The position numbers and the translations under genes were made by a program. A stretch of 64,000 nucleotides of DNA. It comes from Eremomyces bilateralis CBS 781.70 (taxonomy: Eukaryota). How positions within the stretch are numbered: the first letter of the stretch is position 1; each line of letters begins with the position of its first letter. Location of the stretch: NCBI GenBank assembly GCA_010015585.1, contig ML975164.1. One strand, written 5' to 3'. Below are positions 31,918 to 33,727 of this stretch, piece after piece. The notes beneath the pieces are model-generated. The model ran no database searches and was not told the DNA's origin. It worked only from the letters and a program-made list of their open reading frames with translations.

Positions 31918-32970
31918 TCATCTTACAGCCCACTGCTCATCCATCCACTCCGATATCTTGTTCCAGTTCCTACACCTATGCCTCGCACTGAAGTCCGCAC
32001 GCTCCTTTAGTGGCGCCTTTTTATCCTTCATAATCATGATTGGCGTCACATCTGCATGGCACATGAGCGTCTTCCGAATCGTCTCGATGCAGTGATCTAT
32101 GTGAATCCTGTTAGCCAAGGGCGTGGTCATAAAATCGTTCGGAATAGGCGGGCGAGGGTCCTCTCCCGGCGAGTTCGGCGACCCGGGGACATTTCCATGA
32201 GGGACCACGTCGAGTGGATCAGAGGTGTTGCGGTAGTTGCCCGTGAGCAGCCAGGTGTACTGACGGATCCGGTTCTGTGACTCAGGTAAGCGCGTGCCTG
32301 CCGGAGGGCAGAGGAGGACAGACGAGGCAGTGCAGCTGGTGGAAAACGTCAATCAGCGCCGAATACCCCAGCTCTCCTTTTGCTCCGGGACCCCCATTAT
32401 CCGGCATCACGCGGACGAGCTGGTCGCGGACTGGATGACGGTTCGTAAGGTGGACTTTTGAGTCGGGGATTTTGACCGCGTGTTCTGAGCGCGTGGCTCG
32501 TTAGGACAAGCTGGAGACGTGGAGAGCAGCGTGCAGTAACACTCACTGAATGTCAGGTTGTGCCATTCATCTTCTAGCTCCTTCGTTGGCGGCCCGCGGT
32601 AAATGCTCAGTTGTCCAAAGTCATTCTGGAAATCAAAATCTTCATATTTGACTGCTTCCAATACAGGGGCTGAAACTGTCAGCGCGCCCAGGGCATTCAG
32701 GTATAGGGAAGGCAGTGGCATACACCAGATGGATGTCTCTGTGGCGCATTCTTTGCCAGTTCTGTGGTGTTGTTTGGCTACGAAGACGTTGATGACGGAG
32801 AGAAGGAGCATAAACGCTGAGACGACAAGAGGAATGGTATTGCAGGGAACGCTCCATCGCGCCCCTCGCAGAGACGGCGATAATACCACCTCTTTCTCCA
32901 CTTCATGGTTGCTCTCCACTTCATGGTTGCTCTCCTCTTCAGTAGAGGGGAGCGGCCTGTAGGAAGGCAT
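31918..32970 (-). CDS. DUF3328/UstYa-like oxidase (RiPP cyclisation/halogenation family); 4 exons
   Basis: N-terminal TM helix; YRGPPTKELEDEW; two HxxHC motifs (VFHQLHCL, HIDHCIETIRKTLMCHADVTP); HRCRNW; three GT-AG introns restore one continuous frame. Confidence 0.92.
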
Positions 32971-33481
32971 CCGTTAAATCATTCAGCGTGAGTTTCTCTC
33001 TGTGTGACCTTAGAGTGAAGCCAAAGACAGCCTTGAAGCTTCTGGAAGTTCCTCAATCTATAAAAGACTTTCACCAGTGGTTCGTGCGCAGAGTAGATGG
33101 CCATACTTTACGTACTATTGCGCACAAGACAAAAGGGACCAATTAAATCCTCGAGTTTCAGGTCCGTATTCGGGAGCGTTCCTGTTTTAAGAGCGTCTTT
33201 CAGTAGTTTAAGTGAGTCCCTAATAAAGCTGAAACTAGAATCACGTGCCTGAGCCGTCCATTATATTAGAAGACTATAAATCATTTAGGTTTTTTACAGC
33301 CTCAAGAGAAACAGTACGATAGGAAGGTCGACTTCGTGGCTCGCAGCGCTGGTCGAATGGTTGCAGAACCGTGAGTGATGAATGCTTTGGAAGTGACGGT
33401 GATACTGACGATGATCTCTAGTTCTATCCTATAAGCTTTGCTAGTCAACTCCCCGGTACCTGCCCCAAGGACCAGACAGTC

Positions 33482-33727
33482 ATGAAGTGTTTCCTTATCC
33501 TCACTCTTTTGGCTTCTCTGCGCGCCAGCGCCAGTGCTCAACCCGTGCTCGATAAGAAAGATGTGGATTTGGAAGAGGCCATCAAAGCCTACAACGCGGT
33601 TCTGAATCCCGAAAAGGGCGCATCACCCCTCGGAGCATACAAAGACATTATCGATGCCGCCGACGCACGACAGGTGCTTGGAGTGGCAGGTACCCGACTC
33701 TACGGGACTGGGCGCGTGCCACCTTAA
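33482..33727 (+). CDS. Small secreted peptide, candidate RiPP (dikaritin) precursor
   Basis: Signal peptide MKCFLILTLLASLRASASA; KK site; AIKAYNAVL and PLGAYKDII separated by EKG; divergent from the DUF3328 gene. Confidence 0.6.
   Translation: MKCFLILTLLASLRASASAQPVLDKKDVDLEEAIKAYNAVLNPEKGASPLGAYKDIIDAADARQVLGVAGTRLYGTGRVPP

Follow-up and report, generated by a model that had tools for sequence, protein, structure and literature searches.

A UstYa/DUF3328 oxidase gene head-to-head with a secreted-type propeptide gene in Eremomyces bilateralis: a candidate precursor-oxidase pair

UstYa/DUF3328 genes are common in filamentous ascomycetes, and most of them are without an identified substrate. 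In a 64,000-nucleotide stretch of Eremomyces bilateralis CBS 781.70 (GenBank assembly GCA_010015585.1, contig ML975164.1; hereafter the window), one such oxidase gene stands head-to-head with an open reading frame (ORF) for an 81-aa peptide of secretory layout. The question raised by this locus is whether the peptide is the substrate of its neighbour, i.e. whether the two genes form a small system for a ribosomally made, post-translationally modified peptide (RiPP). An earlier note, made from the letters of the window, had proposed a minimal dikaritin system of precursor and oxidase. A functional two-gene peptide-modification pair is our leading reading, with a probability of roughly 0.4. Below we describe the two genes and the family to which the peptide belongs, and weigh this reading against three others. 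Coordinates of the features are collected in Table 1.

Two expressed genes in divergent orientation

The UstYa gene is intact and expressed. Its exons (32970-32724, 32669-32547, 32484-32324 and 32274-31918, the last including the stop codon) give an open frame of 888 nt, encoding 295 aa, once the three introns are removed. Scanned singly, exons 2, 3 and 4 matched the Pfam family PF11807 with E-values of 8e-6, 1.2e-5 and 5.7e-19 and with scores of 26.3, 25.7 and 69.3 bits, all above the curated cut-off of 25, which places the protein in the family; exon 1 had no Pfam match. The complete four-exon DUF3328 gene of the earlier note is thus borne out, and both of the HxxHC motifs that it had listed are present. 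These motifs are named as a marker of RiPP-related DUF3328 proteins in the account of PMC12048977. The membrane anchor is the one strongly hydrophobic 19-residue stretch of the protein, as expected for a type II, lumen-facing enzyme, which is the topology that we predict. A tblastn search found no second UstYa locus in the window, and we found no solved structures for UstYa relatives. With exon 4 as query, a word-indexed search gave a single 230-aa protein (46% identity), which its source names a hypothetical protein of Sticta canariensis. Exon 1 also carries an 18-nt tandem repeat (32895-32941, minus strand; 2.6 copies, 96% matches) that duplicates a six-residue acidic motif in the predicted cytosolic N-terminus.

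Transcription was followed in contigs from a public run, X1, which contains 73% of the sampled words from 31800-34000. The catalogue label of X1 as RNA is a guess; RNA origin is shown by spliced joints. The contigs were without six short segments that have canonical ends, and they therefore derive from spliced RNA. Three of the segments have CT..AC ends and are the UstYa introns: 32670-32723 (54 nt), 32485-32546 (62 nt) and 32275-32323 (49 nt). They coincide exactly with all three predicted introns, and the joint at 32670-32723 decided between two possible acceptors for that intron. The other three have GT..AG ends, as on the plus strand, and lie at 31367-31426, 31622-31683 and 33371-33421. 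Being contigs, the X1 data carry no information on strand, level, transcript start or transcript end. One contig spans 31000-33848 with the introns of both strands removed, and must thus be an assembly of overlapping transcripts rather than one RNA. Both the UstYa gene and the peptide gene are expressed in the X1 sample, and RNA covers the whole intergenic region, with a single contig continuous over 32724-33370.

The last of the plus-strand introns belongs to the leader of the peptide gene, where the X1 contigs show the GT..AG joint 33370/33422. Downstream of this joint the ORF is unspliced on the contig piece 33422-33848, and the 81-aa frame is therefore the main frame of a spliced plus-strand transcript. 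Within that frame the codon log-odds were 0.184 per codon, compared with 0.177 +/- 0.098 for coding windows and -0.206 +/- 0.116 off frame (81-codon windows; training on seven long ORFs of the window, six with a Pfam domain match). An identical 81-aa protein is recorded in NCBI and UniRef. With its spliced leader, its codon usage, a protein homologue (next section) and the database record, the small ORF is a real coding gene. The earlier note had placed a divergent ORF of this size about 510 bp from the oxidase gene; the two ATG codons are 511 bp apart, and the transcript on which its proposal depended is present among the spliced plus-strand contigs.

Two further observations concern this transcript. 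An upstream ORF of 8 codons (33358-33445, plus strand) begins at 33358 and runs across the leader intron; it could damp translation of the 81-aa ORF. Neither a further exon hidden downstream nor a second unit in decay is supported: over 33422-33848 the RNA contig shows no splicing, and tblastn in all frames found no other unit.

A propeptide family of two members

An exhaustive phmmer search of 1.84 billion representative proteins with the window peptide gave one relative, a protein of 100 aa (P0003), at a library E-value of 7.9e-4; pairwise BLASTP of the two gave an E-value of 1e-7. P0003 has a signal peptide, four residues that make up two X-Pro dipeptides, and two 38-aa units with RR between them. 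The units are identical at 35 of their 38 positions, and the second forms the end of the protein. The alignment to the window peptide spans the signal peptide and one unit (33482-33682 by tblastn). Aligned with the two P0003 units, the window unit scored 76 and 66, whilst shuffles that preserve composition scored 22.4 +/- 4.5 and 21.4 +/- 4.2 and none of 2000 reached either value. Common to the units of both proteins are a D-x-D acidic start, E-A near the start, an A-Y pair, a D-A-A-[D/N]-A stretch and a V-[L/M]-G end. Each unit of either protein has exactly two Tyr, which is its sole aromatic residue. On these alignments, the window peptide and P0003 are the two known members of a new family of Kex2-type propeptides, characterized by two Tyr, by dibasic junctions and by a unit of about 40 aa that can be repeated.

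In the window peptide the signal-peptide-like start pointed out in the earlier note fits hand rules, which are heuristic: K2, a hydrophobic core (9-residue Kyte-Doolittle mean of up to 2.9) and A-S-A before Q20. The KK that it had marked is likewise present, and occupies the place of the RR that precedes the second unit of P0003. Two other claims about the peptide did not hold. The note had divided the region after KK into two imperfect short units; self-alignment scored 19, where shuffles scored 18.0 +/- 3.6 and 111 of 300 reached 19, and with internal self-similarity at the level of shuffles we dropped that division. It had also pointed out that the E-K-G between those units (encoded GAA AAG GGC) is one base from KR; as a decayed KR site this has no support, and P0003 has no dibasic site at the aligned place. 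Judged by the alignment, the real unit is the whole stretch D27-G67, and the two short units are parts of it. AlphaFold2, run on the two-row alignment, placed helices at 30-41 and 50-70 with low confidence.

The known extent of the family is small. Word-indexed searches (with the protein and with the two-row profile, lengths 44-175 aa) returned the two known members only. Pfam, at E-values up to 10, gave sub-threshold chance matches only, and no similarity of the peptide to the MF_alpha families; a PDB sequence search with the peptide gave nothing meaningful. Profile scans of metagenome, prokaryote-genome and viral contigs found no relative of the peptide. Look-alikes in the ESM Atlas all fell below 0.9 and are leads only, not evidence; for P0003 they comprise a cluster of yeast alpha-factor precursors, at 0.79, besides clusters formed by hypothetical proteins of ascomycetes.

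The P0003 comparison also bears on whether the 81-codon ORF is translated at all, since the plus-strand RNA might be a by-product of a bidirectional promoter. The upstream ORF in the spliced leader would fit such a case, as would the low confidence of both structure models (pLDDT, the predicted local distance difference test score, of 0.47 in the ESM Atlas and a mean of 50.3 with AlphaFold2), and the ORF is known at the level of RNA and sequence, not of peptide. However, P0003 keeps the signal peptide and the unit with a similarity that none of the 2000 shuffles attained, and the in-frame codon usage equals that of the confirmed genes of the window. We regard an untranslated ORF as very improbable.

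Weighing the precursor-oxidase pair

In the pathway that we propose, the 81-aa product would enter the endoplasmic reticulum (ER) and lose its signal peptide after Ala19, and a kexin-type protease would cut after K25-K26, a role that RR would have between the units of P0003. The UstYa oxidase, whose gene would be transcribed divergently from the shared 511-bp region, would sit in the same secretory membranes with both HxxHC motifs on the lumenal side, and may cross-link one or both of the conserved Tyr of the 41-aa unit oxidatively. The peptide would finally be trimmed and then secreted. The predicted cleavage sites, the presumed topology of the enzyme, its putative action on the peptide and the supposed chemistry make up what would be a dikaritin system, a designation that we infer from adjacency and from the layout of the family.

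Several results favour the pair. The genes are immediate head-to-head neighbours, and spliced forms of both occur in X1, joined in one contig. Amongst single-exon ORFs in 18-48 kb there was no other convincing signal-peptide ORF, and coding tandem repeats in that interval were limited to the UstYa 18-nt repeat and repeats of the RING gene. The two units of P0003 with their dibasic junction are a hallmark of secretory propeptides of the sort that UstYa enzymes modify, and so support the pair. Kex2-processed propeptides are the substrate class that UstYa enzymes are known to modify, as set out in PMC7329392, and small clusters with a single DUF3328 gene are described for asperipin-2a (PMC6514808) and the epichloecyclins (PMC10540207). 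The dikaritin proposal in the earlier note is thus supported by an intact and expressed oxidase, a transcribed neighbour of secretory type, a Kex2-type layout in P0003 and conserved Tyr; there is no support for the core of two short AY units split by a decayed KR, for any KR site or for any accessory gene.

The published survey of repeat proteins processed by Kex2 (KEPs) provides a yardstick. A KEP is defined there by a signal peptide and at least three repeats of 8-100 aa between KR, KK, RK or RR sites (Umemura 2020, PMC7329392), and the subclass that is modified is recognized by a DUF3328 gene close by. Such a gene is found here as the adjacent, divergent one at 511 bp. The window protein has one unit and P0003 has two; with fewer than three repeats and no KR, the peptide is not filed in the repeat-precursor family, of which it may be a variant. 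That survey (PMC7329392) puts at 22% the share of KEPs with a DUF3328 gene no more than 15 genes away. Two of its other figures favour the pair: for 2991 of 9399 DUF3328 genes a KEP is found at such a distance, with the count highest at the adjacent position, and Tyr occurs in 65.6% of repeats with a DUF3328 gene nearby versus 38.2% of those without.

Other points weigh against the pair. To the lack of three repeats are added the absence from the window peptide of any KR site and of a dibasic site after the unit. KK is a poor Kex2 site. The window unit, at 41 aa, acidic and weakly predicted to be helical, is unlike the known cores of 4-9 residues. The adjacency of the candidate precursor and the oxidase is known from this one locus, as genes and RNA contigs; P0003, for its part, is encoded on a contig of 1164 nt. 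Pfam scans, which covered 16 translations and 79 of the 134 stop-to-stop ORFs of at least 110 aa (the rest overlap larger genes in other frames), found no tyrosinase, methyltransferase, P450, peptidase or nearby exporter. The only permease of the window, at 12988-14361, is about 19 kb away. Finally, about two thirds of DUF3328 genes lie away from any repeat precursor, according to the counts in PMC7329392.

Two further UstYa loci from a metagenome scan, L001 and L002 (38-51% identity), also count on this side: neither contains a peptide homologue or an obvious signal-peptide precursor (9.1 kb in the case of L001). L002 is cut inside the UstYa gene, and its upstream side is absent. The UstYa genes of both loci are probably paralogues, and hence hardly bear on the linkage. 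In L001, a fungal contig, two UstYa paralogues (about 70-1131 and 5235-6276, within 1-6300) flank a Zn2Cys6/fungal-specific transcription factor gene (1585-3673, minus strand).

Nearly as likely as the pair, and ranked just below it, is that the peptide is an ordinary unmodified secreted propeptide (signalling, pheromone-like or defence) which lies beside the UstYa gene by chance, the oxidase acting elsewhere. The long, acidic, weakly helical unit would, to judge from the models, resemble a released linear peptide more than a macrocycle core; no accessory genes were found; and the alpha-factor cluster at 0.79 amongst the P0003 look-alikes is a lead in the same direction, albeit a lead only. 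Like pheromone-type KEPs, P0003 has a signal peptide followed by units split by dibasic sites, and the X-Pro dipeptides after its signal peptide would be trimmed by a Ste13-type aminopeptidase. In the survey figures, 74% of KEPs lack a nearby DUF3328 gene and are regarded as sources of linear peptides (PMC7329392), and DUF3328 enzymes are described as serving non-RiPP pathways as well, e.g. that of cyclochlorotine (PMC7329392, PMC12048977). Yet the same survey material has nearly all pheromone-type KEPs without a DUF3328 gene nearby (PMC7329392), unlike the peptide gene here. Moreover, a position immediately head-to-head with a UstYa gene, of which a genome has few, is unlikely by chance: we roughly estimate about 1-2% for a small secreted orphan beside a given gene. 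That both genes are expressed in one sample, and that Tyr is conserved as the sole aromatic residue, also tell against coincidence.

A comparison of strains bears on a third alternative, in which the locus is a decaying former precursor-oxidase pair: a shrunken precursor with a scrambled tail and a weak KK, and a drifting oxidase, transcribed without a product. The X1 strain differs from the window at 11 positions in 31000-33850. Six of these fall in the UstYa coding sequence, four non-synonymous (E268K, I243V, M150T and L103P) and two synonymous, which is a weak hint, from very few sites, of relaxed constraint and as such a further point against a functional pair. The 81-aa ORF had no difference where about one was expected, which is uninformative. 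Decay would also account for one unit against the two of P0003, and for a tail of 14 aa that is unique and lacks a dibasic site after V-L-G, and would suit the remnants of mobile elements around the locus (DUF3435 fragment, hAT transposase and RNase H; see below). Against this, both frames are intact, the introns are correctly spliced and the catalytic motifs are present; tblastn detects no remnant of a second unit downstream; and six substitutions are too few for inferring relaxed selection. We consider decay unlikely, although less so than an untranslated ORF.

Known UstYa systems and the surroundings of the pair

If the leading reading of a functional pair is right, its closest parallels are small clusters. 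The asperipin-2a cluster of Aspergillus flavus, as laid out in a 2019 review (PMC6514808), consists of the precursor gene aprA, the DUF3328 oxidase gene aprY, aprR and aprT. Like the present locus it is very small, with one UstYa-family oxidase beside a signal-peptide precursor and with an adjacent reductase gene, and in asperipin-2a the Tyr side chains cross-link with no tyrosinase needed (PMC6514808). It differs in that AprA, as described, has many KR-flanked cores of 6 residues, whereas the peptide here has a single unit of 41 aa, preceded by KK and with no site after it; in that AprR is by description an isoflavone reductase, whereas the neighbour here is a classical adh_short protein; and in its transporter, of which there is none nearby here.

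The epichloecyclin cluster of Epichloe is described as gigA (precursor), gigB (DUF3328), gigC and kexB (PMC10540207). Its secreted precursor likewise has few, fairly long units in variable number, 27 aa each, and a unit comprises a core with Tyr and a follower; a single DUF3328 protein is implicated in cyclization (PMC10540207). Unlike the unit here, those of GigA, of which the described strain has four, come after LxKR sites, and the cluster has a methyltransferase and a dedicated kexin, neither of which was found here (PMC10540207).

The ustiloxin and phomopsin clusters are larger (UstA/UstYa/UstYb/UstQ; PhomA with five DUF3328 genes). They have in common with our locus a UstYa-family enzyme with two HxxHC motifs and, in the accounts of PMC7329392 and PMC12048977, a substrate routed via the ER and Golgi, as we propose here also. 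Their precursors, as characterized there, are highly repeated, with KR sites and cores of 4-6 residues, and the clusters contain a tyrosinase, a methyltransferase and several DUF3328 genes, all of which were sought here and not found. The term dikaritin is currently defined as a RiPP made with a DUF3328 enzyme. A five-part definition of the cluster (Ding et al., as quoted in PMC12048977) includes a tyrosinase, a methyltransferase, multiple DUF3328 genes and a transporter or peptidase; in the window there is a single UstYa locus with no tyrosinase, methyltransferase, transporter or peptidase nearby. Pasinato and Singh (2025, PMC12048977) describe DUF3328 genes with HxxHC motifs as widespread among lichen-forming fungi; a repeated precursor was not found in that study, which suggests a precursor located elsewhere or with just one core.

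The peptide gene has as its convergent neighbour the expressed gene of a classical short-chain dehydrogenase, which might belong to the pair's system. On the other side, convergent with the UstYa gene, is a DUF3435 (Crypton-type) remnant (31065-31990, plus strand), which is transcribed and has two introns, 31367-31426 and 31622-31683. Once spliced, its frame ends at 31496 with 103 aa; the part that matches DUF3435 comes later, at 31617-31988, where it is now out of frame and overlaps, on the opposite strand, the UstYa gene's 3' end. Farther away are genes of housekeeping type: RING finger, RabGAP-TBC, response regulator, FAD/NAD-binding reductase, XPG nuclease and F-box/WD40. Runs of N at 39399-39673 and 56980-57034 (330 bases in total) interrupt the RabGAP-TBC region and the F-box/WD40 gene. 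Signs of a variable region rich in mobile elements (8035-18644 and 59013-60917) are HET-domain genes at 8035-10005 and 59013-60917, an RNase H fragment at 10683-11450 and a hAT transposase at 16101-18644.

Table 1. Positions of the features discussed, in window coordinates, with the basis for each
Feature	Position	Strand	Basis
UstYa/DUF3328 gene, 4 exons, 295 aa	31918..32970	-	Pfam PF11807 on exons 2-4; introns seen in RNA contigs
Second HxxHC motif, residues 235-239	32089..32103	-	Inside the exon 4 Pfam match
First HxxHC motif, residues 172-176	32327..32341	-	Kept in P0002 and in the L001 paralogues
Hydrophobic membrane anchor of UstYa (predicted), residues 46-64	32779..32835	-	Best 19-residue Kyte-Doolittle window, mean 2.52
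Divergent intergenic region, 511 bp	32971..33481		Contains the 5' leader exon and intron 33371-33421 of the peptide transcript
81-aa prepropeptide ORF	33482..33727	+	ORF list, RNA contig, codon usage, NCBI/UniRef record
Predicted signal peptide, residues 1-19, cleavage after A-S-A	33482..33538	+	Hydropathy and -3/-1 rule; same layout in P0003
KK dibasic site, residues 25-26, directly 5' of the unit	33554..33559	+	Sequence; cleavage presumed
Conserved 41-aa unit D27-G67 with Tyr37 and Tyr53, ending V-L-G	33560..33682	+	Alignment to the P0003 units; tblastn
Unique 14-aa C-terminal tail	33683..33724	+	Without counterpart in P0003
Short-chain dehydrogenase gene, 331 aa, convergent with the peptide gene	33997..34992	-	Pfam adh_short, E 4.1e-10; covered by RNA contig 2

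Implications for the search for UstYa substrates

The locus is a compact test case, with two expressed genes in about 1.8 kb, for a propeptide of one or two units as a UstYa substrate. A more far-reaching claim, which we hold to be doubtful, is that it represents a new kind of UstYa-dependent peptide, with one or two long (about 40 aa), acidic, two-Tyr units instead of many short KR-flanked cores. If this were true, the pair would make a large peptide stapled through tyrosine, and not a macrocycle of 4-9 residues. Published miners detect only precursors with at least three repeats, and the precursors missing from beside lone DUF3328 genes, such as those described for lichen fungi (PMC12048977), would then be low-copy peptides that are invisible to repeat-based mining. 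Thousands of DUF3328-associated candidates are already catalogued. Should the pair turn out not to be functional, even a closely adjacent gene for a secreted peptide would be no predictor of a UstYa substrate. If it is a UstYa substrate system, the search for modified peptides of fungi would be broadened, and a new peptide scaffold would be gained.

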